Shown here in pieces: positions 985-17,890 of a stretch of DNA of 64,000 nt (position 1 is the first letter of the stretch; every line of letters starts with the position of its first letter). Under the pieces are notes generated by a model. It did no database searches, was not told the origin of the DNA, and saw nothing but the letters and a program-made list of their open reading frames with translations. The position numbers were made by a program, and so were the translations under genes. Origin of the DNA: Candidatus Bathyarchaeota archaeon (GTDB lineage Archaea; Thermoproteota; Bathyarchaeia; Bathyarchaeales; Bathycorpusculaceae); assembly GCA_963767735.1 (NCBI GenBank), contig CAVYES010000007.1:192001-256000 (forward strand). Reading direction: 5' to 3'.

Positions 985-1437
985 TTATGGTTGGTCAATG
1001 GACAATTCTTTTACTCTTGTTTCAATGAATTCGGCAACCTTTTGTTCGCTAAACTCTTTTTCGTTTTTTTGTAGCTGCAACTGCTCTTTTACAATGTTTA
1101 GGAGGTTTTCGATATCTATGGGTTTGATCAGGTATGCGTCTGCATTCTTGTTTAAGGCTGATATAGCATTTTGCATCGAAGGGTAACCTGTCACCATTAT
1201 TTTGCGTGTCCTTGGAACCGTATCCTTAATGAGTTTTAGCAGTTCAACTCCTTCCATGTCAGGCAATCGAATATCTAACAGCGCAATGTTATAAGCTGAT
1301 TTCTGAGTTTTTTGAACAGCTTCTCTTCCGGTGGCTGCTGAATCGACAATGTATCCTTCGTCCTCAAGTATGGTCTTCATGGTGTTCCTTATGTTTTCGT
1401 CGTCATCGACAACGAGGATTTTGGCATGTTTATCCAA
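985..1437 (-). CDS. Response regulator (receiver domain plus short C-terminal helix)
   Basis: ILVVDDD, LLDIRLPD (phospho-Asp), VTG and KP motifs; GGAGGTGA SD lies inside the upstream kinase gene. Confidence 0.95.
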   Translation of the reverse strand: MDKHAKILVVDDDENIRNTMKTILEDEGYIVDSAATGREAVQKTQKSAYNIALLDIRLPDMEGVELLKLIKDTVPRTRKIMVTGYPSMQNAISALNKNADAYLIKPIDIENLLNIVKEQLQLQKNEKEFSEQKVAEFIETRVKELSIDQP

Positions 1438-4142
1438 ATTTTTTCACCTCCAATTTCAGGTTTTGGTTCAATTGGCAAAGTAACTATGAAAGTTGTTCCT
1501 TTGCCCTTAGCTGTTTTAACCGTTATTTTCCCCCCATGAGCCTCGACTATGCGTTTGCATATCGCTAAGCCGAAGCCCATACCTTGCGCTTTCGTAGTGG
1601 ACAGAGGGGAGAAAAGTTTGGGCATAATTTCATCACTAATGCCTGTGCCAGTGTCTGTGAAAGAGATTTCCAAGCCATCATTAACTTGTATACTGTCGAT
1701 AGTTAATTTGCCTCCGTTCGGCATTGCATCAAGGGCGTTCTTGATAAGATTTATGAAAACACGTTTTATTTTATCAAAATCTAGCATAAGATTTCGCGTA
1801 TCTTTAAGGCAATTTACAATTTTCACTTTTTCGGGAATCTGAGACATAGATAAAGAGTCATTGAGCAACACGCTTGGGGAACACTCCTTCAACTCTAAAT
1901 GGATTTCTCTTGAGTAATCCAAAAGGTCACTGACAATTTTGTTTGAATAATCCACGCATCTATCGATTGTATCAAGCATTTCTTTAGCCTGGACCTCTGA
2001 GATTTCTGCGCCTTTCTTTTTCAAATAATAAGCTGAGTTTTTGATTCCCGTTAATGGATTGCGTAGATCATGCCCAACCATGCCTGCCAATTCGCCTATA
2101 GCGGCCAGACGCTCGGTCTTAACGAGCTTTGCTTGCGCCTGTTTCAGCAGTTCAGTCCTTTTTTCAATGAGGTCTTCGAGTTTTTCGGAGTACTTAGAGA
2201 GTTCGCTTTGCATACATTTAATTTTTGTAATATCAACTGCAAGTTCCAAGACGGCAACTACATTGCCTTCCTGGTTTTTCATTGGGGTAGAGGTGATCTC
2301 AAGGTTCAGCGTTTCTCCATGACTTTCAACTGTGGTTTCACGTTTGTCAATGCTGGCGCCATCAAAAATTTTCTTGACTCCGCAGGCTGGGCAAATTGAG
2401 TGATTGCCATGAATTGTTTCGTAACAAGTTTTTCTTTCTATATCGCCAAACATTTGTTTCGAGTGTGGGTTAATCCAAGTTATCTTGTAGTCTTTGTCAA
2501 CTATCATAAGCCCTGCACTAATGTTTTGTGTCACTGCTTCAAACTTGTTTTTTTCCTCTTCGAGTTTTTCCTGCAACTGCTTCTTTTCCGTTATGTCAAC
2601 AGTGAGCTCTAAAGCGGCTGTGACCTTTCCCTCTGCGTCCTTAATCGGCGTAGCAATAAGCTCATACCAGCAAGGCAGACCCTTTTCATGCAGGGTTTTA
2701 TTGAAATATTCTCGGGAATCAAAAGATGCCCCAGCAAAAACCTTTTCAGGCCCACAACCGGGGCATATGGTCTCAAGCGTATTAAATGTTGAATAACATA
2801 TTTTGTTTGTAAGGTCGCCCCCGTTGTTTTTCAAAAAGCTGTTTGTCCAAAGTATGCGGTAATCCTTATCAAGTATTACCAGCCCAGCTCCGATGCTTTT
2901 GGTGATGTCTTCAAGCATGTCACGTTCCTGTTTGATGGAGGCTTCCATCTTCTTTTGTTCTGAAATATCCTTAACTATGGCTGCTATGCAATTTTTATCT
3001 TTCAATTTTACTGATGCTACTGAGAGGTCAATCGGAAACACTGTTCCATCCTTCCTCAGCGATGTTAAATCAAAGTGTCTCTTTGAAAATGCATTGTGCT
3101 TTAAGTCGTTCAGCAACGCTTCATAATTCTCACGTCCCCATGACGGAATGATTAGTTCAGACATTTTTCCGCCTACTGCCTCAGCTTCTGCGAAGCCGAA
3201 GATTTTCTCTGCAGCAGGATTCCAATATATGACTTTGTCGTCTTCATCAACTAAAATGATGGCATCCATGGCAGAGGAGCTGATGGCGCGGAATTTTTCT
3301 TCGCTTGCTCGTAGCCCATCTTCGAGTTGTTTGCGTTCGGTAATGTCTTTTACTACTCCGACCGCATTCCATTTACCGCGTAACTTTATCGGCGAAATCG
3401 ATAATTCGGCAGGGAATTCTGTGGCGTCCTTGCGTCGCCCCATTAATTCAACGTTTCCAAATGTGAAATAGCCTGATCCTGTTTCAGTAAACAACTTTAC
3501 GCTTGAGCTGATTCGTTCTCTTCCCTCTTTGCACAGCGTATTTGGAACAACTAGTTTGTGTATATCTTTGCCAATTGCCTCTTTACTTTTGTAGCCGAAT
3601 GTTTTTTCAGCAGCCGGATTCCAACATGTAACCCTGGCTTTTTCATTCACCAAGATCATTGCATCCTTTGATTGTTGGAAAAGCTTCTTGTATTTCATCT
3701 CAGATTCCTGACATTGTTCATCCATTTTTGCAATTTTTACCAGTAGTTGTCCCTGAATCTGCCTTTTTTCCGTTACATCTCGTAGAGTGATTAGGTCAGC
3801 TGGTTCCCCAAAGTAATCAATCGTATTACCTTTTGGCTCAAAAAATCGAGTTTCTCCGTTTACAAGAAATGGGATTTCGTAATTCTCGATTGTTTCGCCT
3901 TTAATTCTTTTCTGGAGTTGATTTATAACAAATATCTTCGTTTTTTCATCAATAATTTTCAGGTCTTCAATATGATTACCTATTAATTCCTCACTTTTTA
4001 TTCCAAGATGAATACATGCGGTTTCGTTGGCAGCCAGCACAATACCTTCTCGATTAAATACCAAAATTGAGTCTGAAACGAAGTTTAGAAGCTCTTGAAA
4101 GTTATCTTTATACGCGTTGCTTTTGCTTTTCTTCTGCATCAA
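1389..4142 (-). CDS. Multi-PAS sensor histidine kinase
   Basis: About five PAS/PAC repeats, H-box GHDLRNPL, N-box NLIKNALDAM, DTGTGI and GMGFGL G-boxes. Confidence 0.95.
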   Translation of the reverse strand: MMQKKSKSNAYKDNFQELLNFVSDSILVFNREGIVLAANETACIHLGIKSEELIGNHIEDLKIIDEKTKIFVINQLQKRIKGETIENYEIPFLVNGETRFFEPKGNTIDYFGEPADLITLRDVTEKRQIQGQLLVKIAKMDEQCQESEMKYKKLFQQSKDAMILVNEKARVTCWNPAAEKTFGYKSKEAIGKDIHKLVVPNTLCKEGRERISSSVKLFTETGSGYFTFGNVELMGRRKDATEFPAELSISPIKLRGKWNAVGVVKDITERKQLEDGLRASEEKFRAISSSAMDAIILVDEDDKVIYWNPAAEKIFGFAEAEAVGGKMSELIIPSWGRENYEALLNDLKHNAFSKRHFDLTSLRKDGTVFPIDLSVASVKLKDKNCIAAIVKDISEQKKMEASIKQERDMLEDITKSIGAGLVILDKDYRILWTNSFLKNNGGDLTNKICYSTFNTLETICPGCGPEKVFAGASFDSREYFNKTLHEKGLPCWYELIATPIKDAEGKVTAALELTVDITEKKQLQEKLEEEKNKFEAVTQNISAGLMIVDKDYKITWINPHSKQMFGDIERKTCYETIHGNHSICPACGVKKIFDGASIDKRETTVESHGETLNLEITSTPMKNQEGNVVAVLELAVDITKIKCMQSELSKYSEKLEDLIEKRTELLKQAQAKLVKTERLAAIGELAGMVGHDLRNPLTGIKNSAYYLKKKGAEISEVQAKEMLDTIDRCVDYSNKIVSDLLDYSREIHLELKECSPSVLLNDSLSMSQIPEKVKIVNCLKDTRNLMLDFDKIKRVFINLIKNALDAMPNGGKLTIDSIQVNDGLEISFTDTGTGISDEIMPKLFSPLSTTKAQGMGFGLAICKRIVEAHGGKITVKTAKGKGTTFIVTLPIEPKPEIGGEKIWINMPKSSLSMTTKT

Positions 4143-4937: not shown

Positions 4938-5151
4938 TTCAAGATTCTAAACCTAGCAACACAACCGCAGCAAATTTTAGGTTCATATCTTGCCGCAGAT
5001 AGATGCCTTGCTGCAAAGACTGCTGTTTTCGGTTGTCGTTCGATGGATGGATAACGACCGTCTTAAAGCGACTTTCGAGTTGGTTCTCAGAAAGGCGGCT
5101 TCTACGAAATATAACTTGCGCTTAGTGGAAATTGAACTTGAGGGTTCAATT

Positions 5152-5526
5152 TTATCGTTTTTTTCCTGCGGAAGAAGGCTGGATTGGGCTTGAAACTGGA
5201 AATCGGGTTAAAAACCGCTTGATCTCCTTAGAAGTTGTGAACCTTTTACATGGAAAACAGAGGCTAGTTTGAACTTTTCGCATGTTGAGAGAGCACGATT
5301 TTGACGTGATTTTGTAGGGTTTGAGTGGCTCCTGAAGTGGTGGTCGTTGTGGGAAGAAACCATACGTCGACGATTCATTTATGAGGTAAGGGCGGTTCGT
5401 TGCCGAACGGTTTCCGCCAGTTCTCTTGGTTTTCAGGCCGCTTTGGCATATTGTGAACAGGGACAGGTACGTTTTGGTTTCAGGGTACGGTTTGCACGCT
5501 CTACCGTGCTCGCGGCACCATAGCAT
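5152..5526 (-). CDS. Hypothetical basic, Cys-containing protein, possibly a degraded gene
   Basis: 124-aa ATG-started ORF between the tRNA and its partial copy; no family recognised. Confidence 0.3.
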   Translation of the reverse strand: MLWCREHGRACKPYPETKTYLSLFTICQSGLKTKRTGGNRSATNRPYLINESSTYGFFPQRPPLQEPLKPYKITSKSCSLNMRKVQTSLCFPCKRFTTSKEIKRFLTRFPVSSPIQPSSAGKKR

Positions 5527-5793
5527 CAGACTTATCGTAAGTTTTTTTATACGAAACTTAGGCAGCGAGCTTCTCTAAGTTGAGGCAATCTACAAAAGCG
5601 TCAATGAACCGTACCGGGTTTTGCTTGTCGACGTAATCATCAAGTATGTTTGGGAAGAGAACTGACTGATTTCTGTAATGGCCTGTTATGTGTTCGCTCA
5701 TGGCTTTTCAGCTCTTTCTGTTGCTCTAAAGCTAGTCTAGATTTAAGGTTAACGGAAAATAGCAAGCAAAGAAAGAGACTTTTCACTCAGTCT

Positions 5794-5822
5794 GATCTGG
5801 GTCTTAGACCCAGCGGGCCTCA
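5794..5822 (+). repeat. Degenerate copy of the tRNA-Pro 3' end (att-like remnant)
   Basis: GATCTGGGTCTTAGACCCAGCGGGCCTCA versus tRNA GATCCTGGGTTCAAATCCCAGCGGCCTCA. Confidence 0.55.
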
Positions 5823-6098
5823 CCACAAATTCACCAAATGACCTAAGAACCAGTTATCTGAAAGTACGTGCCTTGTATGGCAGCTTAATTTTTTGGATTA
5901 ATCTTCTAAAAAGCTAAAAATAAGGTCTTTGCAAGATTCTAGTTAATCAACCAATGCAGAATGATTTGTTTTTTTAAAATAAAAAAAGAGAATAAGTTTT
6001 ATGGGAGTCGTAAAATTAGGGAAGCATTTTGAGTATTTTGGGTTATTCGTTAGGATGATTGAAGCGAATGATGTTGAAGGATGGAGTCTGAGTTTGTG

Positions 6099-6197
6099 TT
6101 AAAGTTTTGTTTTGAGTTCCAACTTTATGCTGTACCCTATGAAGGCAAATGAACCGATTATTGTAGCTATTGAGGCTATATCAATTATTCCAAACAT
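6099..6197 (-). CDS. Unannotated 32-aa single-TM peptide (MFGIIDIASIATIIGSFAFIGYSIKLELKTKL)
   Basis: GGTGA SD, own TATA plus shared motif, ungapped homology to the peptide at 12459-12566. Confidence 0.75.
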   Translation of the reverse strand: MFGIIDIASIATIIGSFAFIGYSIKLELKTKL

Positions 6198-6240
6198 ATT
6201 TTCACCATTTTATTGTATACTTATGTACTTGCACAGCTAA

Positions 6241-6269
6241 ATATAAATACAGTTGTGATTTGTTCATAA
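6241..6269 (-). promoter_or_regulatory. Promoter with shared motif, site 1: TTATGAACAAATCACAA-N5-TTTATAT
   Basis: Motif 6253-6269, TATA 6241-6247; faces the 32-aa peptide. Confidence 0.75.
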
Positions 6270-6383
6270 TTATTCATAAACACTTGACAGCTGTCTAAAA
6301 TCCAACAGAAAATTTATATGCAATAACACCTTAATACTGTTAAGCTTAAACCTAAACAAGTAAAAAGAAAAAGAGGAAAAAAA

Positions 6384-6632
6384 TTGAAAGCCTATATACT
6401 CTTAAGCACTAAACCCGGCACGTCATTGGACGTCGTTAAAAAAATAAAAGAAAAAGTCACAGGGACCTGCATAGTATCTGCGGACGCAATCTTCGGCCGA
6501 TACGACGCAATAATAGTTCTAGAAGCCCCAGCACTTGAAGACATAAACCAAGTAGTTTACAAAATAATCGAAAAAGACCCCAGCGTGATCCGCACTGAAA
6601 CATCCATAGTTTTATCACCAATGCAACAATGA
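6384..6632 (+). CDS. Stand-alone Lrp/AsnC ligand-binding (RAM) domain protein
   Basis: KAYILL..KPG....V......ADAIFGRYDAI......RTETSIV; no HTH; T-tract after the stop. Confidence 0.85.
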   Translation: MKAYILLSTKPGTSLDVVKKIKEKVTGTCIVSADAIFGRYDAIIVLEAPALEDINQVVYKIIEKDPSVIRTETSIVLSPMQQ

Positions 6633-6736
6633 ACTCTTAGACAGAAACCAAAATTTCCCAAATCATTTTTTTTTTTTTAAAAATAAGATTTCAGGAAGAA
6701 AATAATACGGCTTATCCGAAATAAACTAATTCTATC

Positions 6737-7030
6737 TTAAATGGATGGAGATGTGGAGGGGGCGGTTTCTTCGGTGCATTTTGGTCCTTTGTGAGCTTTA
6801 AGTACAATGGAGCTTACGGTGCTTTTTACGCCTTTTATTTTCATGATCTTGTTCTTGAGGATATCTCGAAATTCTTCTATGTCGGCAGCTGAAACCAAAG
6901 TTACGATGTCAAATTCGCCTGTAACTTCGTATAATTCTTCAAGGTGTTCCAGTTGGGCAAGTGAGGTTAATACGGTATCCATTTCTGGAGATTCCACAAA
7001 TATATCGACGAATGCAAGGAGTCTTGGCAT
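6737..7030 (-). CDS. Stand-alone Lrp/AsnC ligand-binding (RAM) domain protein
   Basis: LYEVTGEFDIV...IMKIKGVKSTVSSIVL; no HTH; start placed at ATG of MPRLLAF by alignment to the 11591-11881 paralog. Confidence 0.85.
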   Translation of the reverse strand: MPRLLAFVDIFVESPEMDTVLTSLAQLEHLEELYEVTGEFDIVTLVSAADIEEFRDILKNKIMKIKGVKSTVSSIVLKAHKGPKCTEETAPSTSPSI

Positions 7031-7213
7031 ATGGGTCTTGCCATATTGAACATGAGTTTCCAATATTTATACTTTTTCTCGCATGCAGACAATTATTCCA
7101 TCCTTTACCTGACAAATGTGCGGCATCAAAGTTAAAAATTGGACATTTGAAAAAAAGAGCCATCGCTTGTGTTTTGGCATTCAGCAATCACGAGTTTACC
7201 AAGGGCTAAAACA

Positions 7214-7690
7214 TTAACTTGTGAAATTACCATAAACAGACGGATAATCTTTTATTAGCAACAGATTAAGCTGCAAAGGGTCCACATATGGACTGCCAAA
7301 AATCCAAAGCGTTCCCTGCTGATTCTGGTTCACCAGATTTGTTAACGAATCAACAGGAATTCCGGTTGCATTACTTATTCCAGGTATCTGCGCGTAAGCT
7401 TGCTGAAGTGTGATATCGGGGTCGACACCTGACGCTGATGGCGATACTGTCTCGTTCCTTGTCTGGAAGAACATAGGCGAAGTGAAGTTTTGAGCGATAA
7501 GAGCCGACCCTACGTTTTGCCCGTTGAGCTGGACTAATTCGCCGTTCGCTTGGTAGGGAAAGAAAACTTGGCCTATACCTGTGATTACTAATGGAAAAAG
7601 TATTCCGCAAATCAACAGCGAAACCAATGTCAACCCTATAATCGGTCTCAGGTTCTTCAGGACCCATTTTCGTTTTTGTTCAGTTGTCAT
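7214..7690 (-). CDS. kdpC: K+-transporting ATPase subunit C (short form)
   Basis: N-terminal TM, FPYQANG, GSALIAQNF, SASGVDPDIT, LNL motifs. Confidence 0.92.
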   Translation of the reverse strand: MTTEQKRKWVLKNLRPIIGLTLVSLLICGILFPLVITGIGQVFFPYQANGELVQLNGQNVGSALIAQNFTSPMFFQTRNETVSPSASGVDPDITLQQAYAQIPGISNATGIPVDSLTNLVNQNQQGTLWIFGSPYVDPLQLNLLLIKDYPSVYGNFTS

Positions 7691-7704
7691 ATTTTCTTTG
7701 CTTC

Positions 7705-9885
7705 CTAAATGTGAAGTACTCCACCAAGGAGCAGATCTATCAATTTAATTCCAACGAAGGGCACAATAACCCCGCCCACACCATAGATTAAGGTGTTCTT
7801 GAGGAAAAGAGCCATTGTGCTCGTGGGCTTGAAAGCGATTCCTCGCATGGCAAGCGGAATCAAAAGCGGAATGACGATAGCGTTGAATATGAGAGCCGAC
7901 ATGACAGCGCTTTGCAAGTTGTATAAATGTAAGATGTTTAGAGCGCTTAGCGATGGAATGGCTGTTGCCATGATAAAAGGCATGATTGCGAAGTACTTGG
8001 ACACATCGTTAGCTATGCTAAAAGCAGTAACCGCGCCTCGAGTCATAAGCAACTGTTTCCCAAGCATGACGACATCAATTATTTTTGCTGGATTCGATTC
8101 TAAGTCAACCATGTTCGCTGCCTCCTTAGCAGCTTCTGTGCCAGAGTTCATGGCGAGACCCACATCGGCAGCTGCAAGTGCTGGGGCATCATTACTTCCA
8201 TCGCCAATCATTGCCACAATTCTGCCTTCAGATTGCTCCCTCTTGGCGATGTTGTACTTGTCCTCGGGCTTTGCCTGCGCCACATATTCGTCCATTCCAA
8301 CCTCTGACGCAATACTTTTGGCAGTAAGCGGCTGGTCTCCAGTTATCATGACTGGGCGGATTCCCATGACTTTAAGAGCTGCAATTTTTTCTTTTATGCC
8401 TTCTTTCAGGACGTCTTTCAATCTGATTATTCCGATGATTTTGCGGTTTCTTGCGACGGCTATAGGTGTTTCGCCCTCCACAGATATTCCATCTACGATA
8501 AGGTCGTAGTTTGGAGGAACGGAATCTACAATTTTTTTGATCGATTCTGGAGCGCCTTTGTAGATTTCAATTTCAGCGTCAATTCTTGCTGCAACGCCCT
8601 CTTCAGGCACTATCGAGGATTTTCTTCTGATTCTCAGTCGGTCTCGTCCTGATTTGTCACCTTTCGGCAGCGTTAAGCCCATGTGAGTTATTTTCACTCC
8701 ACTAGTGCGGGTGCTGGCTGAGAACGGGTAAGTTTCTGAAAGCGCGAGAGAATTCAGTTCTTTCGGTAAGAAACCTTTCTCATATGCGAGCTTAAGTATG
8801 CTACGACCCTCTGGGGTATCATCATGCCAAGAAGAAAGGAAGGCTGCTTCACCTACTTCTTCTTCCGTAAACCCTTCCATTTCCACGAACTTTATTGCTT
8901 GCCTGTTTCCTACTGTAATGGTGCCTGTCTTGTCGAGCAGAACGACATCCGCATCGCCAGCTGTTTCTATCGCCTTGCCGGACTTTGCGATTATTTTGCT
9001 TTTGTACAGTCTGGACATTCCAGAAAGCCCGATTGCGGGAAGAAGAGCACCTATGGTTGTTGGGAGGAGGCAAACGTAAAGTGCTATTAGCACGGAGAGG
9101 TCAGCGCCTAAACCCAAAGCGACCGATATGCCTAGCAAAGTAAGTATTATAATGGTGAAGATAGCGGTTAATCCAATCAGCACGATGGTTACCGCAACTT
9201 CGTTAGGCGTCTTTGGTCTCTTAGAAGATTCAACCATCTTTATCATTTGATCAATGAAGGTCTCGCCAGGATTCGTCGTAACCTTCGCGGTCAAAGAATC
9301 GCTGACGAGTCGTGAGCCTCCAATAAGCGAGTCTCCAGGCGCCTTCCGAACCGAAGCGGATTCACCCGTAACAAGCGACTCGTCAACCATGGCGATTCCT
9401 TCCAGTATATCAGCGTCTAAAGGAACGACGTCGCCTTTTTCAATCAGGATAAGATCATCTTTTCTTAGTTCAGTCGATTTTACATCGACTATCTTCCTCG
9501 TCCATTCTTCCGTTACGATTTTTTTAGCCGGCACCTCAGTTTCTAATTTTCGTAAAGCACCGGCTGTGCTTTTTGCCTGTTGCTCAGCAAGAGCATCAGA
9601 GAGGGTGCTGAACCAAACGGTAATGAGGAGAATTGCGGCGACTGCAATATAGAAGCCTCGCAGGCCGACGCTGGCTACTGACCCGAAAGCCTGTGGAGCG
9701 ATGGCCATTGCTGCAACAATAAAGAACGTGATTTCAACTATTAGCATCACTACGTTTTTGAGCAGTGATTTAGGGCTTAAACGGATTAACGAATCAATCA
9801 GCACTTTTTTAGAGAGCTTCATTCCTTCATAGGAAGGTTCGCTCCTCTTTGCCGGTGCTAAAGTTTTCGTTTCATCAGAAGCCAT
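7705..9885 (-). CDS. kdpB: K+-transporting P-type ATPase subunit B
   Basis: TGES, CLLPTTIG, DKTGT, TGD, GDGSNDAPALAAADVG, SIANDVSKYF motifs. Confidence 0.97.
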   Translation of the reverse strand: MASDETKTLAPAKRSEPSYEGMKLSKKVLIDSLIRLSPKSLLKNVVMLIVEITFFIVAAMAIAPQAFGSVASVGLRGFYIAVAAILLITVWFSTLSDALAEQQAKSTAGALRKLETEVPAKKIVTEEWTRKIVDVKSTELRKDDLILIEKGDVVPLDADILEGIAMVDESLVTGESASVRKAPGDSLIGGSRLVSDSLTAKVTTNPGETFIDQMIKMVESSKRPKTPNEVAVTIVLIGLTAIFTIIILTLLGISVALGLGADLSVLIALYVCLLPTTIGALLPAIGLSGMSRLYKSKIIAKSGKAIETAGDADVVLLDKTGTITVGNRQAIKFVEMEGFTEEEVGEAAFLSSWHDDTPEGRSILKLAYEKGFLPKELNSLALSETYPFSASTRTSGVKITHMGLTLPKGDKSGRDRLRIRRKSSIVPEEGVAARIDAEIEIYKGAPESIKKIVDSVPPNYDLIVDGISVEGETPIAVARNRKIIGIIRLKDVLKEGIKEKIAALKVMGIRPVMITGDQPLTAKSIASEVGMDEYVAQAKPEDKYNIAKREQSEGRIVAMIGDGSNDAPALAAADVGLAMNSGTEAAKEAANMVDLESNPAKIIDVVMLGKQLLMTRGAVTAFSIANDVSKYFAIMPFIMATAIPSLSALNILHLYNLQSAVMSALIFNAIVIPLLIPLAMRGIAFKPTSTMALFLKNTLIYGVGGVIVPFVGIKLIDLLLGGVLHI

Positions 9886-11533
9886 TCTTTAACCCTCCGA
9901 AGAATGATCCAAGTGGTCCAATCGCCAAGAACGGGAAGAACGATAACACTACTAGTATGATGATGCTGACAACTAGAACTATAGTAAATAGTAATGTGTC
10001 GGTTTTGAGCCCTGTGCTGGTGCCAGTTCGTTTTCGCCCGATCATGGAGCCTGACAGTGCAAGCAAGATTAGAATTGGACCATAGCGTCCTATTAAAATG
10101 ACTATGGCAGTAGCTATGTTGAAGAACGGTGTATTTCCTTGGGCGCCTAGGAAATCTGAACCGTTGTTCGCTGAGGCTGACGTGAATTCCCATAGGATTT
10201 GAGTGAAACCTATAGAGCTTCCGTTGACGCCAATGGCTGCCGCTGCGCCCGAAGCATACGCTGTTACTGTGGGTATTAGTATGGAAATGGGATGAAGTAG
10301 GAAAGCCACCATGACAAGCAATACGTCATGACCAGTGATCTTGACGCTCAGGTATTCAGGAGTTCTTCCAGACATTAATCCAACGACGAAGACGGTAATT
10401 AAGACGAACATTACCATGTACATCATTCCAACTCCTTTCCCACCTGGAATCGACTGAATGAACATCCCCAGGAAACCAGAAGTTATCCCCAGAGGATGAA
10501 TCCCGGAAAGCGAAGCGTTAACGGAGCCAGTTGTGCACATAGTCGTAATCACAGTCCATAAAGTGGAAGAGAAACCGCCGAACCGAGTTTCAATTCCTGG
10601 ACCAATTGCGGGAATAGATGGAATAAACGCTAAAGCTAGAACGCCTCCGCCAAGAATCAAAGTGCCCCCTAAAAGGGGTATGGATTCGCTTTTTTTGCCT
10701 ATCATTTCACCGAAAACAAAGAGCAAAGCTAGCGGAAGCAGCAGCATCAGAATTATCATGATGACGTCAGTGTATTGGGAAGGGTTCATGAAGGGGTAGG
10801 CAGCGTTTGCACCGTAAAAGCCGCCGCCGTTTGTGCCCAATTGCATTATGCCGTCCAGGGAAGCAACAGGTCCAGCTAGAATTGTTTGTGTAGCCCCCTC
10901 TATCGTCTTTAGTGTGGTGTAGCCGGTGAGGGTTTGGGGTACACCCAAAGCAAGAAGTACGATTGAAGCTACAAAGGCGAGGGGCAAGAAAATTCTTGTA
11001 ATGGATCTGGTGAAGTCAACGTAAAAGTTACCCATGTCTTTTGAGCTGGGGATTAATCCTCGGATAAATGCGATCCCTACGCATATTCCTGTGATTGGAG
11101 AGGCAAATTGAAGCCACTGGAGAACGCCTATTTGGCTAAGATAAGAAAAAGCTGCTTCGCCGTTATAATGTTGCAGATCAGTATTTGTCGTGAAAGAGAC
11201 TGCCTGCATGAAAGCAAGGTCTGGATGTATGTCGGGGAAATGCATGGGGTTAAGGGGCAAGCTGCCTTGGAAGACCATGATTAGAAAAGCGACAACAATC
11301 ATGACTACGTTTACCATCAGGGCTGCAAGAAAGTACTGCTTCCACCCCATCGTCTGCTCTGTGTCTACGCCAATGATTTTGTAAATGAAGTTTTCAATTG
11401 GGTTGAATATTTTATCTAAACGGCTTGGTTTTCGATTATAAACTGCGACGAGATATGGCGCTATAAGTTTCGCTAAAACTAATGCTACACCAATAATTAG
11501 AACGACTGCCAGCGCCTGAACTGCATTTGTCAA
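9875..11533 (-). CDS. kdpA: K+-transporting ATPase subunit A
   Basis: Filter motifs TNTDLQHY, LGTNGGG, TTGSVN, SANNGS; GRTPEYL. An SD-preceded GTG at 11567 is one base out of frame and may be the true start if there is a 1-nt error. Confidence 0.96.
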   Translation of the reverse strand: MTNAVQALAVVLIIGVALVLAKLIAPYLVAVYNRKPSRLDKIFNPIENFIYKIIGVDTEQTMGWKQYFLAALMVNVVMIVVAFLIMVFQGSLPLNPMHFPDIHPDLAFMQAVSFTTNTDLQHYNGEAAFSYLSQIGVLQWLQFASPITGICVGIAFIRGLIPSSKDMGNFYVDFTRSITRIFLPLAFVASIVLLALGVPQTLTGYTTLKTIEGATQTILAGPVASLDGIMQLGTNGGGFYGANAAYPFMNPSQYTDVIMIILMLLLPLALLFVFGEMIGKKSESIPLLGGTLILGGGVLALAFIPSIPAIGPGIETRFGGFSSTLWTVITTMCTTGSVNASLSGIHPLGITSGFLGMFIQSIPGGKGVGMMYMVMFVLITVFVVGLMSGRTPEYLSVKITGHDVLLVMVAFLLHPISILIPTVTAYASGAAAAIGVNGSSIGFTQILWEFTSASANNGSDFLGAQGNTPFFNIATAIVILIGRYGPILILLALSGSMIGRKRTGTSTGLKTDTLLFTIVLVVSIIILVVLSFFPFLAIGPLGSFFGGLKNGF

Positions 11534-11590
11534 TTAATCCGAAACTCCAGATAACATTCGTGCTCACTATGGCTCCTTTCCGCTCCTGTT

Positions 11591-11881
11591 CTATTTTGCT
11601 ACCGAAGTATTAATTTTTGCCGCTAAACATTTGGGTCCCTTATGAGGCTGCAAAATTATCGTTACTATAGTGCTCTTTATGCCGTTAATCTTCAGTATTT
11701 TCTTATGCAGGACATCCCTGAACTCTTCAAGGCAAGACGCAGAAACTAAAGATACAATGTCGTATTCTCCGGCTACATCGTAGACTTCTTCGATATTTTT
11801 TAGTTCAGCGAGGGCCGTCAGCACATAATTTTTTTGGGACGGCTCAACGAATATATTAACAGACGCTAACAACCTGTTCAT
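11591..11881 (-). CDS. Stand-alone Lrp/AsnC ligand-binding (RAM) domain protein
   Basis: VYDVAGEYDIV...KILKINGIKSTIVTIIL; close paralog of 6737-7030, sharing the HKGPKC tail. Confidence 0.85.
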   Translation of the reverse strand: MNRLLASVNIFVEPSQKNYVLTALAELKNIEEVYDVAGEYDIVSLVSASCLEEFRDVLHKKILKINGIKSTIVTIILQPHKGPKCLAAKINTSVAK

Positions 11882-11967
11882 AACAAGACTGCCCTCTTAT
11901 CTAAAAGAATGATCTCTACTATCGCTGAGCAAGTTCTTGGCTGGAACATGGTCGTAAAACTCTGCAA
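11878..11967 (-). CDS. Possible 29-aa leader ORF (MQSFTTMFQPRTCSAIVEIILLDKRAVLL)
   Basis: AAGGAG SD before TTG; its stop overlaps the next start as ATGA. Confidence 0.35.
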   Translation of the reverse strand: MQSFTTMFQPRTCSAIVEIILLDKRAVLL

Positions 11968-12008
11968 TTTTTCTTCTCCTTAACTTTCATACTCATAACA
12001 TCTTTTCC

Positions 12009-12037
12009 TAATAAAGCTATTTGTGACTTGTACATAA
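12009..12037 (-). promoter_or_regulatory. Promoter with shared motif, site 2: TTATGTACAAGTCACAA-N5-TTTATTA (RAM-kdpABC operon)
   Basis: Motif 12021-12037, TATA 12009-12015. Confidence 0.75.
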
Positions 12038-12377
12038 TTATTTGGTAAAGCTGAACTAATTTACACCAAAATGTCTAATAATTGAAAACATGAACGCATC
12101 ATAAACGTAAAGTTATGAAAACATGTTGAAACGATAGGTCCTCCAAACCACAAAGTTCCTACGAAATAGAAACGTAGCTGGCCTTAAAACCAGTCAAATA
12201 AATTGATTTTTTTACTAATTTGCTCTTATCAAACAACTTTATGGCTACATGTAAAGATCGATATGCCTCTCCAAGAACGAAAGGCAACAACCATTTGTCG
12301 AAACAAACAGTAATTACCCAGCCAAACGTCTAACTTCAGTTATCACAATTGTACAGCTTTTTTATTTTTCTTAAAAG

Positions 12378-12407
12378 TTATGAACACTTCACAACCACAT
12401 TTATATA
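12378..12407 (+). promoter_or_regulatory. Promoter with shared motif, site 3: TTATGAACACTTCACAA-N5-TTTATATA
   Basis: Motif 12378-12394, TATA 12400-12407; faces the 35-aa peptide. Confidence 0.75.
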
Positions 12408-12458
12408 GGATGAAGCACAACTAAAAATCGTTCAATAAAACTGAAATTTGGTGAAAAA

Positions 12459-12566
12459 ATGTTGGGATTATTGGATATATTCTGGACATGCGTAATATTT
12501 GGGTCAATAGTCACAATAGGCTACCAGCTCCGTTCAGAAATAAAAAATGGCAAACTACCATCATAA
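12459..12566 (+). CDS. Unannotated 35-aa single-TM peptide (MLGLLDIFWTCVIFGSIVTIGYQLRSEIKNGKLPS)
   Basis: GGTGA SD, own promoter, homologous to 6099-6197. Confidence 0.75.
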   Translation: MLGLLDIFWTCVIFGSIVTIGYQLRSEIKNGKLPS

Positions 12567-12887
12567 GTTAATTTCTTGTTCACGCGCAAACATTTCGATT
12601 TTAATAAATATTAGCCAAACTTGGCTACAAAGCAATCATAAAAGCTTTCTAATAAAAGTCGTTTTATTGTCGAAATCTTATATGAAGAACGGATTGGGCA
12701 AGAAAAACCTGGAGAATCCTAGAGCCGTTACCGAGTCTTCCTAAAGAAAATCGATTTGGGCATTTGGAACTATGTTTTTCTCCGCCCATATTTGAATTTT
12801 TCTTTTGGTCAATAAAACAGTCTAATCATAGTCTTTTATCCATAAATTTATCGTTTTTATGGAAATACTTGCAGTTATTCATAATTA

Positions 12888-12916
12888 TTATGAACAAATC
12901 TTAATTAGGTTTATAT
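12888..12916 (+). promoter_or_regulatory. Promoter with shared motif, site 4: TTATGAACAAATCTTAA-N5-TTTATAT (APC permease)
   Basis: Motif 12888-12904, TATA 12910-12916. Confidence 0.75.
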
Positions 12917-12959
12917 TTCGCTAGACCTGATTTATTGACTAATAATTTGGTGTTACTAG

Positions 12960-13097
12960 ATGAAAAAGAGAATGGAATCTCCAAATGTAAAAGAGTCAAG
13001 CAGAAAGCACAAAGCACTAATCGTTAAAAAAGGCAAAAAACTATTTTCCGCTATTATCTGCTTGTCTCTCAGAGGAGGGAAAACATATATCTTCTGA
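12960..13097 (+). CDS. Possible 45-aa Lys-rich leader ORF upstream of the APC permease
   Basis: ATG after GGTG; MKKRMESPNVKESSRKHKALIVKKGKKLFSAIICLSLRGGKTYIF; overlaps the permease SD. Confidence 0.35.
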   Translation: MKKRMESPNVKESSRKHKALIVKKGKKLFSAIICLSLRGGKTYIF

Positions 13098-13128
13098 CGC
13101 AACTGATGCAAAGACTCAAAAAACTCAA

Positions 13129-14688
13129 TTGAAAAAAACCCTCGGCCTCGGCGGCGTAACAATAAACGCCATGGCATTAATAGCCCCAGGGGCTTTCTTG
13201 TGGCTTACTTTTCAGATAAACGCAGCCCAGACCTCGCCGTCTGGCGCTTCAACAGCCAACGACATATTTTTTGGCCTTACAATAGCGTTAATTTTGGCGT
13301 TCCTAACTGCCGCTTCTTATTCGTGGCTAGCCCAACGTTACCCCGATGCTGGTCCAGGCAGTTCGTATTACTTTGCTCAAAGAGCCTTACTAGACAACGG
13401 AGCCAGCAACACTTCAGCCAGAAACGCAAAGTTCGGTATCGGCTGGATTTCTCACCTCTACTATTGGGTCTACCCAGGGGTTATGGTTGCAGCGATGTCC
13501 CTCTTGCTAACATGGATTTTATCAGTACTTGGCTTCAGCATTTCACCCTTAGGAGAAATCGCTATTGCCTGCGCATTTGCAGTGGTTACAGGCGCTATAG
13601 CTTACCGCGGAATTCAAGGATCAACAAAAACAAACCTTCTCCTCAACATAGTTCAAATCGGAATGCTGGTCATAATCACCGGAATGGCCTTGGCATTCCG
13701 TTTTACTAACCCTCAACACGTATCCTTTACATTCACTAGCTTAGGCGGAATAGTCACACCTCACGATATCAGCTTCGTGTTATTTCAAGCGACCATCGCC
13801 ATCTTAGTACTAGTAGGATTCGAATCCGCAACAGCATACACCGGAGAAGCCAAAGATCCAAAGGTTGTTCCAAAGGCAATAATTTTATCTTTGATCATTC
13901 AAGGCGCCTTCGCGTACCTATTTGAATACTTTGGAGCCGAGGCATGGATGAACAACAGCTATACCATAACACAAAACGGCAAGACATTTACGGGATTTGG
14001 CGCCGCAGCAGTTTCGACCGCTCCCATCGGGGATATGGTTCACAACCTGGGAAACGTATTCCTTGGAGGCAACGGATTCACGCTAGAGCTAATAGTGGCT
14101 GCAATTGTGGCAGCTGCAATATTAGGCACTACCCTCGCATGCATGAACACCGGCGTTAGAGTAACTTACGCAATCAGCCGAGACACCGAAGTGCCTTATC
14201 ACCTCAGTAAGCTAAACCCAAAATACTCCACTCCAGCGATTGGCATCTGGGTAATGACAGCCGTTGCAGCCGCTATTGGATCCTTCGGAGTACTAACAAT
14301 CACAAACCTAACATCAATTACATTGCTATCAAACTTTGGCACCTTCCTGCTGTACGGACTAACAAACCTGATAGCGTTAATCGCGTTCACTAAAGAACGC
14401 AGTAACATACTAAAACGCAGAGTAGTTCCAATCGCAGGCTTCGCTGCCAACGCTGTCATGATGGCAACAATCGTGTACCTCAGCTTTGCAGGCGGAGGGG
14501 CTTCAGCATCAGAAGGAATCTTCGCTATAGCCGGCACCGCAATATGGTTGGCAATAGGTTTAATCTATTTCCGCGTCAACTCAAAATCAAAGTCCTCCGG
14601 TTTGTTCCCATTCCCAGGGAAAGACGAGGACGAAATCAAGACTGCAAGCAGTAAATCCAGAGCCTTCAAGTTCTGGAAAAAAAATTAG
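13129..14688 (+). CDS. APC-superfamily permease
   Basis: About 12 TM segments, GFESATAYTGEAKDP, RVTYAISRD, TP motif; start may be an in-frame ATA at 13087 after GGAGG. Confidence 0.9.
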   Translation: MKKTLGLGGVTINAMALIAPGAFLWLTFQINAAQTSPSGASTANDIFFGLTIALILAFLTAASYSWLAQRYPDAGPGSSYYFAQRALLDNGASNTSARNAKFGIGWISHLYYWVYPGVMVAAMSLLLTWILSVLGFSISPLGEIAIACAFAVVTGAIAYRGIQGSTKTNLLLNIVQIGMLVIITGMALAFRFTNPQHVSFTFTSLGGIVTPHDISFVLFQATIAILVLVGFESATAYTGEAKDPKVVPKAIILSLIIQGAFAYLFEYFGAEAWMNNSYTITQNGKTFTGFGAAAVSTAPIGDMVHNLGNVFLGGNGFTLELIVAAIVAAAILGTTLACMNTGVRVTYAISRDTEVPYHLSKLNPKYSTPAIGIWVMTAVAAAIGSFGVLTITNLTSITLLSNFGTFLLYGLTNLIALIAFTKERSNILKRRVVPIAGFAANAVMMATIVYLSFAGGGASASEGIFAIAGTAIWLAIGLIYFRVNSKSKSSGLFPFPGKDEDEIKTASSKSRAFKFWKKN

Positions 14689-14980
14689 CTCCCCTTTTTC
14701 TTTTTTAAGAAAACTATGGAAAATTTAATAAACAGTGTATATTTTAGTTCAAATTCGATTTTTTGCTTTGTAATTTGCTTTCGAACTTGACAATTCAATA
14801 ACGAACATTCTTTTACTTCACATTTAATGCCTCAACCTGCAAATGATTCAAATTCTTCAATCTATATTTCAAAATAACTGAGCAACGGCAACCCTAACCC
14901 CTCAGCCTTTCTAAACATTCTGGGTTTACTGGTGAACTCAGTACGCCTAGTGGACTTTTACATAATTTTTGATACTTTTC

Positions 14981-15045
14981 CAACCGTTTCAAACCATTTC
15001 TAACCATTTTCAACCAATTCCACCCGTTATAAACCGTTTTAAACC
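14981..15045. repeat. Degenerate 10-bp tandem repeat, about 6.5 units (nAACCRTTTY)
   Basis: caaccgtttc aaaccatttc taaccatttt caaccaattc cacccgttat aaaccgtttt aaacc. Confidence 0.7.
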
Positions 15046-15370
15046 TCAACCTGCAAAGATTTTAAGCCCTGAACCAAAAAAGCAACCCAAAAAAAGCTTT
15101 TTTAAAAAAGCACGAAAAAATTGTTTTTACCTATCTTCTACTCAGAACAGTGCCAAGAAAAGAAAAAAACTTTACCGCCACTAATATTTATCTGAAAAGG
15201 GATCGGCTAAATGTACACGATAGGTGAAAGAACGCGGGTAAATTAGAAAGAACTGGGTTTGTTGAAATGGAGCAAAACTAACAATCAAACAACAAGAAAT
15301 AGCTTAGAAAGAACTTAAGCAATTGAAACCACCCAAGTTTGAAAGCGTAAGGTGTACTTTATTTTACTTT

Positions 15371-15481
15371 TCATCTACTTTTCTTCATAACTCTTTTTTG
15401 AAAGATACTGTGCGGTTGACAATGAGAGTCCATTATAATCTGTTCTTCAATGTTCCGTTTAGTTTTTGAAGCTTTTTTCAA
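15371..15481 (-). CDS. Possible 36-aa basic peptide (MKKASKTKRNIEEQIIMDSHCQPHSIFQKRVMKKSR)
   Basis: TTG after GGTG, directly downstream of promoter site 5. Confidence 0.4.
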   Translation of the reverse strand: MKKASKTKRNIEEQIIMDSHCQPHSIFQKRVMKKSR

Positions 15482-15525
15482 TGATGACACCAATTTCGAT
15501 TTTACAAAGTGGTATGTTCAGGGAA

Positions 15526-15554
15526 ATATAAACGTAGTTAATACTTGTTCATAA
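15526..15554 (-). promoter_or_regulatory. Promoter with shared motif, site 5: TTATGAACAAGTATTAA-N5-TTTATAT
   Basis: Motif 15538-15554, TATA 15526-15532. Confidence 0.7.
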
Positions 15555-15655
15555 CTTTTATGAAAAGCTGAATTATTTTGTAATAATAACTTGTTATGAT
15601 GAACAACCAAAAAAGGTCTGGAGACTTGAACCGCATGATCCAAACAATAGATTGG

Positions 15656-16570
15656 CTAAATGGTTCCTATGATTAACCCTATTGTAAAGCTGAGCAGTGG
15701 CACAATCACCCAGCTTAAAGCTATCAGCAGAAACGGCTTAACCGAGACGAACTTGGATTTGTAAGATATTCCTGTTCCAAAAACTGCCGACGCCAAAGCT
15801 TGAGTGTTGGAAAGTGGAATATTTAAAATCGTAGCCGCCTCAACGAGAACCGTTGAAACCACAAGCGTCGCCGTAGCATTTGGGTACCGCATGAGAAAAA
15901 GCTCTTGAGCAACCCTACGAATCTCGCCAGCACTCAAATAGAATGTTCCGATAAATATTGCAGCAATTGCCGCTATGACGTTGGTTATATTGAAACCGCC
16001 CGTGGCAACTATCAACCCGAGGGTATTTGCTCCTAGAACATATGAGGTTGAAAACGCTAAAACAATTATCAGGATTTTGTAGGTTTGTAGTCTTCGCCAA
16101 ATGTTTTCGGTCCAGTTACGATTTATGATTCTGATGAGGTAAAACGCAAAAACTATAGCGATCAAAGGTGCCAAAACCCACATGGCCGCCACCTCAGCAA
16201 TGTAAGCGCTGTTTGTAAGTGCACCAGTTGCAATGGATAAGCCTGCGAGCAAACCGACAAGCGCCATGCTCATAGATGCTGGCACTCTAATTAAGTCGGC
16301 AACAACAAAAATTAATATGGCCACCAGCAAAGCTTCTGCCCGAAACTGCAAAGTCACATTTGGCAGCAGCACATGTATTGTTTTTATCATGCTGACGCCT
16401 TGGGCAACGAGTCCCAGTGAAAATCCTGCAGCGCCCAGCAGCATTCCAAGTCGTTTACTTATGATTCTTGAGCCTACGGCGGGGCCAACACAAGCGGACA
16501 GATTGTTGCCGGCAACTAACATTACCGTGATGAAAGTTAATATCAAAATAGCGATGGAAAGCCAAAGCAT
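15656..16570 (-). CDS. PiT-family inorganic phosphate/anion transporter
   Basis: GNN and GANT signature-like motifs, PLSNTQ, multi-TM; paired with DUF47. Confidence 0.85.
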   Translation of the reverse strand: MLWLSIAILILTFITVMLVAGNNLSACVGPAVGSRIISKRLGMLLGAAGFSLGLVAQGVSMIKTIHVLLPNVTLQFRAEALLVAILIFVVADLIRVPASMSMALVGLLAGLSIATGALTNSAYIAEVAAMWVLAPLIAIVFAFYLIRIINRNWTENIWRRLQTYKILIIVLAFSTSYVLGANTLGLIVATGGFNITNVIAAIAAIFIGTFYLSAGEIRRVAQELFLMRYPNATATLVVSTVLVEAATILNIPLSNTQALASAVFGTGISYKSKFVSVKPFLLIALSWVIVPLLSFTIGLIIGTI

Positions 16571-16576
16571 GCCGCG

Positions 16577-17257
16577 TCACTTAGTAATAGAGGTAACTAC
16601 GGATACGATGAGATCTGAGAGGTCCTCGCAGGAATCAAGTACGTCGTCGCATTTGTGCAAAAGCTCGGAATAATGGAAGAACTGCAAGTAATGCAAGTTC
16701 GGCGTCATGTTGTATAGCCTGTCAAATCCCCCGTTTTTAAAGTCATCGCCCTGTTCTTCCAAGGCTTCAATTTCTTTGCGCAGCTCCAAAATCTCTGAAA
16801 CGTTGGATGAGGAGAGCGCCTGAGTGAGCTTTGAGAGGGATGTTGTCGCGAGTGTAAGGAGGTTCATGTATACAGAGTCCCAACCGGGACGTTTCATTTC
16901 GAAACCCGCAGAGTAAACCTTCGCCATTCGATCTAATTCTCTGCTGAGGTAATAATACAAGTCAACTATGTCGTCAGCAACTTGGACGGATCTAAGCAGG
17001 TCATCTATTATGTTGGGGCTGATGGCGCCGCTTGTAATGTCTTCGCTTATTTTAAAGGCTATATCATCAGATTTTTTCTCAAGCAACTGCATGGCATTCA
17101 TGGTTTCAGTTACCTGTTTTTCGTTGACATCTACATTAAACATGCTTGACACGAGAGTGTTAGCTTCTGAAGCGATAGCTATAATTTGAGTAAGCTCAAC
17201 GAAAATATTTTTTTCTCCAACAACCAAGACACCCCTGAGGCTTTTCAGCATAAACAT
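16577..17257 (-). CDS. DUF47 / PhoU-like Pit accessory protein
   Basis: LEKKSDDI and LEEQGDD repeats, helical; upstream of pit. Confidence 0.85.
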   Translation of the reverse strand: MFMLKSLRGVLVVGEKNIFVELTQIIAIASEANTLVSSMFNVDVNEKQVTETMNAMQLLEKKSDDIAFKISEDITSGAISPNIIDDLLRSVQVADDIVDLYYYLSRELDRMAKVYSAGFEMKRPGWDSVYMNLLTLATTSLSKLTQALSSSNVSEILELRKEIEALEEQGDDFKNGGFDRLYNMTPNLHYLQFFHYSELLHKCDDVLDSCEDLSDLIVSVVTSITK

Positions 17258-17407
17258 CCTCCCAAATTTCAAGTTCAGTAATACTCGGTCAAGCAATATT
17301 AAGTATTTAAAATTTTCAAGTTTGCTTATAGCGACAAGATTAAAGATTGATTAAAGATGAAATGCTAAAAGCAAGGGCTTTGAGAGATTCTGGAAGTTCG
17401 CGTTCAA

Positions 17408-17890
17408 TCAAATAACTTTGCTGTATTCTTTTACGGCGTTCAAAGCAATCAGCGTGGTGGTTCTCTTTATGAAGCGTTCAGTCAGCAGTTTTTTTAAGTA
17501 ACCATTAAGGCTTGCATTGTCTCGGAACTTGGCGAAGACAATTGCATCATACTCTCCGGTTATATCGTAAACGGATAAGACATTGCTTTCTTTTGCAATT
17601 TCATTTTCGACTTCGATAATATGTCCGCCTTCAACCTGAATCATGATAATAGCAGTCAAGGTATAACCCATCTTCGCGGCGTCAACAACGGGCACGTATC
17701 CAAGAATTACGCCTTCACGCTCTAGACTATCAAGGCGATTGTGCAGAACATTTGGGGTTATCCCAACCCTGTAAGCTAGCTTACGCAAACTTACTCGTGA
17801 ATCTTCTTCCAATGCCCGTATGATTTGCAGATCAATGTTGTCCAATTTTATCGTTGGGGTTTCACTCAGTTTTAAGCCCAAAATTCTCAA
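17408..17890 (-). CDS. Full-length Lrp/AsnC transcriptional regulator
   Basis: LDNIDLQIIRALEEDSR HTH, LEREGVILGY, YDITGEYD RAM domain. Confidence 0.93.
   Translation of the reverse strand: MRILGLKLSETPTIKLDNIDLQIIRALEEDSRVSLRKLAYRVGITPNVLHNRLDSLEREGVILGYVPVVDAAKMGYTLTAIIMIQVEGGHIIEVENEIAKESNVLSVYDITGEYDAIVFAKFRDNASLNGYLKKLLTERFIKRTTTLIALNAVKEYSKVI

Follow-up and report, generated by a model that had tools for sequence, protein, structure and literature searches.

We examined a stretch of DNA from a Candidatus Bathyarchaeota archaeon (64,000 nucleotides, here called the window; positions 192,001 to 256,000 of contig CAVYES010000007.1, assembly GCA_963767735.1), in which a kdp operon is flanked by two very short open reading frames (ORFs). 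The first, at 6099..6197 on the minus strand, encodes 32 aa followed by a stop codon, and the second, at 12459..12566 on the plus strand, encodes 35 aa followed by a stop codon. We refer to them as the type-1 and type-2 micro-protein genes, respectively. As judged by comparison across related genomes, the two ORFs are members of one genuine, conserved micro-protein family, limited to a single Bathyarchaeia family. A first-pass annotation of the window had singled out the pair as homologous membrane peptides, and translation of the two frames returned exactly the 32-aa and 35-aa peptides that it had listed.

The two peptides align in BLASTP without gaps and with 12 identical residues among 30 (E 1e-07 in this single comparison), at the same 12 positions as had been claimed. 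One hydrophobic stretch dominates both sequences (best 19-residue Kyte-Doolittle mean of 2.04 for the 6099 peptide and 2.03 for the 12459 peptide), and a single transmembrane (TM) helix is predicted in each. A GGTGA Shine-Dalgarno (SD) sequence was confirmed 4 nt 5' of each ATG (6206-6202 on the minus strand and 12450-12454 on the plus strand), as was a separate promoter for each gene bearing the motif ATGAACA..TCA.AA-N-TTTATAT (6241-6267 on the minus strand and 12380-12406 on the plus strand). Both peptides had also been described as unannotated. This holds for the 35-aa sequence, which is absent from public protein collections, and does not hold for the 32-aa sequence, whose exact sequence is present there as a 'hypothetical protein'.

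The kdp genes between them lie on the minus strand and comprise kdpA (9875-11533; Pfam KdpA, E 9e-175), kdpB (7705-9885; Pfam E1-E2 ATPase and HAD domains) and kdpC (7214-7690; Pfam KdpC, E 3e-38). As previously noted, the two peptide genes both point away from this kdpCBA block (7214-11533, assigned by Pfam). Three genes encode stand-alone Lrp/AsnC ligand-binding (RAM) domains of Pfam PF01037: RAM_c, the first gene of the kdp operon (11591..11881, minus strand; E 1.7e-12), RAM_a, located 3' of kdpC (6737..7063, minus strand; E 9e-17), and RAM_b, divergent from the type-1 gene (6384..6632, plus strand; E 8e-08). The RAM-domain genes, which have no helix-turn-helix (HTH) domain, thus represent the first and last cistrons of the kdp operon, with a third standing divergently beside it, and this arrangement is found genus-wide. 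No KdpD/E-like pair adjoins the kdp operon. The arrangement of RAM genes around kdp suggests that K+ uptake is under amino-acid-responsive control.

A mobile element with the outward-facing peptide pair as its ends was considered and rejected, because the window copies have no DNA-level repeat in common and the arrangement varies across genomes. An insertion sequence remnant was suspected at 5561-5701, downstream of the type-1 gene. Pfam was empty there and we make no such claim.

Conservation of the micro-protein family

Three copies were combined into a profile, with which we screened every stop-to-stop frame of 20 aa or more in the 3.04-Mb genome from which the window is taken (90,662 frames). 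Five family copies were recovered at E ≤ 1e-10, the next-best frame having an E value of 0.17 with this three-sequence profile. Two are the genes in the window (family profile E 7e-21 for type 1 and 2.5e-21 for type 2), two more are intact copies on contig 6, and one is a broken copy on the same contig. Among 120 genomes of the same genus, including this one, the family is present in 47, at 85 distinct places and with up to 5 copies per genome. In a sample of 201 genomes representing the order, matches were obtained in the source genome, in 3 of 17 genomes of the same genus and in 1 of 6 of a sister genus, and in none of the 147 genomes from 11 other families. An exhaustive hidden Markov model search of 1.84 billion representative proteins identified 37 clusters (50% identity) at E ≤ 0.001, none outside the family. 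Their members clearly belong to the same family, are 30-69 aa in length and keep the frame, start codon, SD sequence and length. The closest relatives of KdpA are labelled Candidatus Bathyarchaeia by their sources.

We could not connect the family to a known one. None of 16 members matched any Pfam family at E ≤ 10, and a sequence search of the PDB with the peptide gave chance-level rows only (E 0.13 and 1.3). The accessible portions of the literature on KdpF, on archaeal small membrane proteins and on Bathyarchaeia kdp hold no description of the family, and catalogue supplements (for example that of PMC11364881) may list its sequences.

The coding nature of the ORFs was examined with the 16 copies found in the first nine genomes. 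All 16 are intact, with the frame, start codon, SD sequence and length preserved. Pooled pN/pS was 0.32 for type 1 and 0.55 for type 2, and in type 1 the mean pairwise differences at codon positions 1, 2 and 3 were 0.22, 0.14 and 0.41, the third position varying most. The dN/dS comparison that the first-pass annotation had put forward gave about 0.06-0.3 in close pairs, indicating purifying selection on a conserved frame. With homologues in genomes of the genus, a preserved reading frame and purifying selection, the proposal of a new small-protein family is borne out.

The opposite view would be that the ORFs are untranslated, and that a conserved promoter drives a short transcript that functions as RNA or in cis regulation. 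The promoter is indeed the best-conserved part of these loci (mean identity 0.79, followed by 0.74 for the coding sequence and 0.60, the background level, for the 3' flank), and other promoters in this genome with the sequence box described below serve very short, dubious ORFs. This view is nevertheless difficult to reconcile with the variability of the third codon position, the low dN/dS values in close pairs and the preservation of frame, start codon, SD sequence and length (30-38 aa) across the 37 clusters. A signal of RNA structure was also missing. Rfam gave no match in window positions 5000-16000, and the presumed transcripts of the two genes do not fold unusually (minimum free energy (MFE) z = 0.30 and -0.28 against 200 shuffles). 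We therefore give the untranslated reading hardly any credence, and infer that the peptides are translated in vivo and inserted into the membrane.

Conservation along the helix was evaluated in an alignment of 40 sequences. E27 is invariant (40/40) and I13 is present in 39, while D6 (with E in three others), K29 (with R in four others), S16 and R25 are each found in 35-36. The best-conserved positions, 6, 9, 13, 16, 24 and 27, fall on one face of the helix. The periodicity of conservation at 100 degrees is a modest signal, the observed value being reached by 183 of 5000 shuffles. According to the positive-inside rule, the basic C-terminal R-x-E-L-K-x-K is predicted to be cytoplasmic and the N-terminus to be outside.

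A promoter box common to the peptide genes, kdp, permeases and glnA

A common sequence, TGAACAAATCACAA, adjoins the TATA box of the peptide genes and is also found upstream of the kdp operon, of genes for amino-acid permeases of the APC superfamily, and of glnA. In the type-1 promoter and leader (6198..6300, minus strand), box and TATA occupy 6241-6267, with a TTATGAA repeat upstream and the palindrome GACAGCTGTC at 6295-6286; in the type-2 promoter and leader (12380..12458, plus strand) they occupy 12380-12406. The same motif is present at 12890..12916 on the plus strand, ahead of the APC permease gene of the window, and a degenerate version, TTATGTACAAGTCACAA-N5-TTTATT, lies at 12008..12039 on the minus strand, upstream of the RAM_c-kdpABC-RAM_a operon. 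Sixteen peptide promoters could be aligned to the pattern TTATGAA.AATTATGAACA.ATCACAAC-N3-ATTTATAT, about 45 nt 5' of the SD sequence, and a GAC-N4-GTC palindrome is an additional element farther upstream in type-1 promoters.

ATGAACA..TCA.AA-N-TTTATAT has three matches in the 64-kb window, those of the two peptide genes and the APC permease, compared with 0 in each of 100 shuffles. A position weight matrix (PWM) scan of the whole source genome gave 11 sites, which precede the 5 peptide genes, 2 APC permease genes, glnA and 3 very small ORFs. In all the loci fetched, a strict regular expression placed the box 5' of the peptide gene in 37 of 43 cases, of the APC gene in 10 of 15 and of glnA in 3 of 4 (61 matches in total in 1.40 Mb, both strands). 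Among the six peptide genes that it missed, four have a one-base variant recognizable by eye and two reflect wrong start positions used in the scan. Box-like sequences were found at the kdp operon promoter in 5 of 8 loci compared (the window, L024, L030, L032 and L033). Since the peptide, kdp, APC and glnA promoters have this box in common, the genes would be co-regulated as one regulon, and on this promoter evidence we conclude that the peptide genes share their regulation with kdp, with the permeases and with glutamine synthetase.

Some box promoters are followed by other short ORFs. In the window, a 45-aa basic ORF (12960-13097) starts right after the box promoter of the permease and, reading in another frame, stops 31 nt 5' of the permease start. 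Conserved counterparts precede the paralogous permease (71% identity) and occur in genome G018 (54%), and the ORF could be an upstream ORF or else reflect a mis-set permease start. A box promoter at 15371-15560 on the minus strand (PWM score 36) serves only a 40-aa hydrophilic ORF conserved in L023 and L028, and on contig 6 similar promoters serve a 67-aa ORF and a 21-aa ORF.

Beyond the permease, window positions 15656-17890 carry genes for a PiT/PHO4-type transporter, a PhoU-like DUF47 protein and a full-length Lrp/AsnC regulator with both HTH and RAM domains (17408..17890, minus strand; Pfam, NCBIfam). Orthologues of the regulator are present close to the island in L023, L028, L058, L064 and L066, and paralogues likewise in L001, L030, L033 and L080. 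The protein may be a candidate for binding the box, with the RAM-only proteins acting as co-sensors.

Genomic neighbourhoods and a possible function

The relationship between peptide and kdp was then examined in the 120 genomes of the genus. Peptide and KdpA occur together in 45 and neither is found in 66; seven have KdpA only, and two have the peptide only, both being incomplete genomes (85% and 69%). The raw Fisher p value of 5e-23 overstates the association of peptide and KdpA, because the genomes are related. In terms of position, kdpA is found within 8 kb of 55 of the 85 peptide copies, and one or more linked copies occur in 41 of the 47 genomes that have the peptide. Synteny, co-occurrence and the common promoter box tie the family to kdp and the APC permease, the linkage anticipated when the pair was first noticed. 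The proximity to kdpA, the pairing of type 2 with an APC gene described below and the common box are the linkage and co-regulation expected of a transporter-associated micro-protein.

In nine genomes (G022, G094, G095, G099, G100, G111, G115, G120 and G130), kdpA is seemingly split by stops or frameshifts. These genomes consist of few contigs and their adjacent peptide genes are mostly intact; the splits may stem from indels introduced in long-read assembly and not from decay.

The two subtypes have different neighbours. For type 2, an APC permease gene is found within 600 nt in all 7 loci examined, the peptide gene lying upstream of it on the same strand or convergent with it. In the window, the permease gene lies at 13129..14688 on the plus strand (Pfam AA_permease_2, E 4e-22; NCBIfam amino acid transporter, below cut-off). 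This synteny bears on the idea that the peptide is a general membrane-stress micro-protein that has no specific partner, is induced with the K+/osmolyte regulon and acts on the bilayer or as a lipid-like filler. Strong independent promoters, several copies per genome, varied contexts and promoters better conserved than the coding sequence would all suit such a role. On the other hand, the conserved polar stripe with its invariant E27, together with the tight synteny between type 2 and the APC permease, argues for a specific contact, and D6, S16 and R25 are near-invariant as well. We consider a partnerless membrane-stress peptide distinctly unlikely.

Type 1 occurs in two main contexts. In the first, it is divergent from RAM_b, past kdpC and RAM_a, as seen in the window and, in the same comparison, in all 5 other kdp-linked type-1 loci. 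In the second, it is followed about 45 nt downstream by a same-strand gene for a soluble protein of 56-62 aa, which we designate orf62. Among the 30 copies not linked to kdpA, 18 are followed by orf62, 7 are paired with RAM_b only, 2 are type-2 genes beside an APC gene and 3 have no recognized neighbour. Orf62 is present in 21 of the 120 genomes, all of which have the peptide, and always lies directly 3' of a peptide gene, which in G019 is interrupted by an assembly gap. An alignment of orf62 from L026 (9765-9953) and 13 other loci has a mean column identity of 80%. Its AlphaFold model (pLDDT 84.9) consists of four helices, for which Foldseek found no counterpart in the PDB at E ≤ 0.001. Neither orf62 nor its paralogue orf70 matched a Pfam family at E ≤ 0.04, and a protein atlas search made with orf70 only gave no usable match. 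In 5 of 19 loci with type 1 and orf62, the string continues, usually via orf70, to a type II P-type ATPase of 926 aa (G122, G071, G123, G019 and the source genome).

A second island in the source genome (L001; contig 6, 556000-575999) mirrors the window, with peptide copies again facing outward at both ends. One strand carries an APC permease paralogue (95% identical), the type II P-type ATPase, orf70, a frameshifted orf62 and a frameshifted peptide gene, and the island continues with glnA, two asparagine-synthase genes, RAM_b and an intact type-1 peptide gene. Downstream of the type-1 gene, the window (985-4142) further encodes a 917-aa histidine kinase with multiple PAS domains and, in a separate gene, a receiver domain. 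PAS kinases adjoin peptide copies in L001 and L031 as well.

We tentatively favour the explanation that the peptides are accessory single-pass subunits of co-regulated transporters, which seems to us quite possible, if short of probable. The single-pass micro-proteins would be expressed from their own promoters through the operator box of kdp, APC and glnA, within a regulon that serves K+/cation and amino-acid homeostasis under the probable control of an Lrp-type regulator and the stand-alone RAM-domain proteins. The conserved polar helix face (D6, S9, I13, S16, I24 and E27) would pack against the membrane domain of the co-regulated transporters and stabilize or tune them, type 2 acting on the APC permease and type 1 on P-type pumps, namely Kdp and the type II ATPase. 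The peptides would thereby do a job that is done elsewhere by KdpF, MgtS or sarcolipin, without homology to these proteins. Action on Kdp or on the APC permease, including every binding partner named here, is something we infer from genomic sequence. A complex prediction for KdpA (34-row alignment) and the peptide (40-row alignment), run without controls, scored 0.00 in both runs and is evidence neither way.

Several observations weigh against this explanation, particularly against a strict role in Kdp. The genomes behind the co-occurrence counts are related to each other and not independent. Thirty of the 85 peptide copies are not within 8 kb of kdpA, and peptide genes are never found inside the kdp operon. 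Islands without kdp but with an intact peptide gene exist in G117, G124 and the sister-genus genome G248 (L064, L066 and L080), with the layout Lrp-APC-(RAM_a)-RAM_b-peptide. Conversely, no peptide gene lies within 8 kb of the intact kdp cluster L078 in G117, and a second kdp lineage has no peptide, APC permease or box within the 12-20 kb fetched. This lineage, with the layout RAM-RAM-kdpABC and a KdpA about 62% identical in five genomes and 72% in G101, was seen in all of the KdpA-only genomes whose kdp loci were fetched, 6 of the 7, with G004 holding a fragment only. The constant neighbours closest to type 1, RAM_b and orf62, encode soluble proteins rather than transporters. In the ATPase string of the source genome, peptide and orf62 are both frameshifted, and the frame of the broken contig-6 copy is disrupted by two single-base insertions.

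Some of these observations would be accommodated by the main rival explanation, in which the peptide is a membrane element of the regulatory circuit itself. At the membrane, type 1 would then act with RAM_b and orf62 to tether or modulate the RAM/Lrp system, which senses amino acids, or a PAS histidine kinase. MgrB, a small peptide that feeds back on sensors, offers an analogy. The divergent pair of RAM_b and type 1 is the most constant arrangement, occurring in 6 of 6 kdp-linked type-1 loci and 8 of the 30 unlinked copies, and is kept in the islands that lost or never had kdp. The succession of type 1 and orf62 in most unlinked copies, and the presence of the peptide in every genome with orf62, point in the same direction. 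However, a soluble partner would find little surface on the cytoplasmic tail, which has only about 8 residues. Type 2 is accompanied by neither RAM_b nor orf62, and no family or fold was matched for orf62 from which a mechanism might be deduced. Moreover, divergent genes may have just a regulatory region in common. A role in the regulatory circuit is, in our estimation, unlikely.

The accessory-subunit explanation, in its broadest form, would describe a KdpF-independent archaeal class of pump regulators. One family would serve two unrelated P-type ATPases, Kdp and the type II cation pump, as well as an APC permease, and would be induced by an Lrp/RAM amino-acid-sensing circuit that replaces the bacterial KdpD/KdpE and couples K+ uptake to glutamine/asparagine metabolism. 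We offer this as speculation that is more probably wrong than right by a good measure.

Small membrane proteins generally escape detection, and those of uncultured archaea are almost entirely uncharacterized. The family presented here has unusually clean comparative support, consisting of a conserved frame, purifying selection, subtype-specific synteny and a box common to kdp, two permeases and glnA. Should the peptides bind pumps or the permease, micro-protein tuning of transporters would have arisen independently in archaea. If they have no specific partner, the family nonetheless gives a well-defined marker of the regulon in this Bathyarchaeia lineage. The box provides a direct handle on the control of K+ uptake in an archaeon without KdpD/E.

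Comparison with known small membrane proteins

PMC6255902 and PMC12629597, citing Gassel et al. 1999, describe KdpF as a lipid-like single spanner that stabilizes the Kdp complex. The first-pass annotation had stated that no kdpF precedes kdpA, and we confirmed that the 57-nt gap between RAM_c and kdpA holds no such ORF. The Pfam family KdpF (PF09604) scored above its cut-off in none of the 120 genomes of the genus, compared with 5 of 14 named control genomes. The micro-proteins resemble KdpF in having about 30 aa, one TM helix and a genetic association with kdpABC in genomes without a recognizable KdpF; with 32 and 35 aa and a single hydrophobic helix, both window peptides are KdpF-like in size and form (about 25-30 aa). 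The suggested relationship to KdpF, however, did not survive scrutiny. None of 16 family members matched PF09604 at E ≤ 10, no KdpF chain in the PDB was matched at E ≤ 10, and alignment of the family profile with six annotated KdpF sequences (plasmid records) by hhalign gave a probability of 1.9% over 2 aligned columns. Whereas KdpF sits directly before kdpA, the peptide genes are separate transcription units outside the operon, one lying beyond kdpC, RAM_a and RAM_b and the other divergent from the operon. Unlike KdpF, the family is multicopy, has its own promoters and is often located away from kdp, and in its members both membrane boundaries carry a conserved acidic residue and the tail is basic. 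By these sequence comparisons, the family is not KdpF.

Type I toxin peptides of the Hok, TisB, Ibs and Fst type are another group of small, hydrophobic peptides with a polar C-terminus that occur in several copies, occasionally with a decayed one. A related explanation for the family is that it forms a self-assembling pore or acts like a type I toxin, causing a cation leak or growth arrest, with the polar face D6-S9-S16-E27 lining an oligomeric pore. The small size and hydrophobicity, the charged C-terminus, the multiple copies with one decayed and the polar residues along one helix face are in line with this. Against it, the flanks hold no conserved region for an antisense RNA: mean identity in the 3' flank is no higher than background (0.60; the coding sequence has 0.74), the sense promoter is the sole conserved flank and Rfam gave no match, although a short unconserved RNA would escape this check. 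The structured mRNA that hides the ribosome-binding site in such toxins was likewise not found, the presumed transcripts being not unusually structured (see the MFE z values above). PADLOC gave no match for the peptides, orf62 or orf70, Pfam was equally empty for the peptides, and a promoter common to housekeeping transporters and glnA misfits a selfish module. We regard a pore or toxin as very improbable.

A further group consists of single-pass regulators of P-type ATPases and transporters, namely MgtS, MgtR, sarcolipin and phospholamban, and AcrZ. These are proteins of 30-50 aa with one TM helix, encoded apart from the pump and induced with it, and the family described here is similar in these respects, with linkage to two P-type ATPases (Kdp and the type II pump) and a permease. 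It differs from all of these regulators in that there is no homology, and in being archaeal and lineage-restricted. The closest functional analogy is with transporter-binding single-pass micro-proteins such as KdpF, MgtS, sarcolipin and AcrZ.

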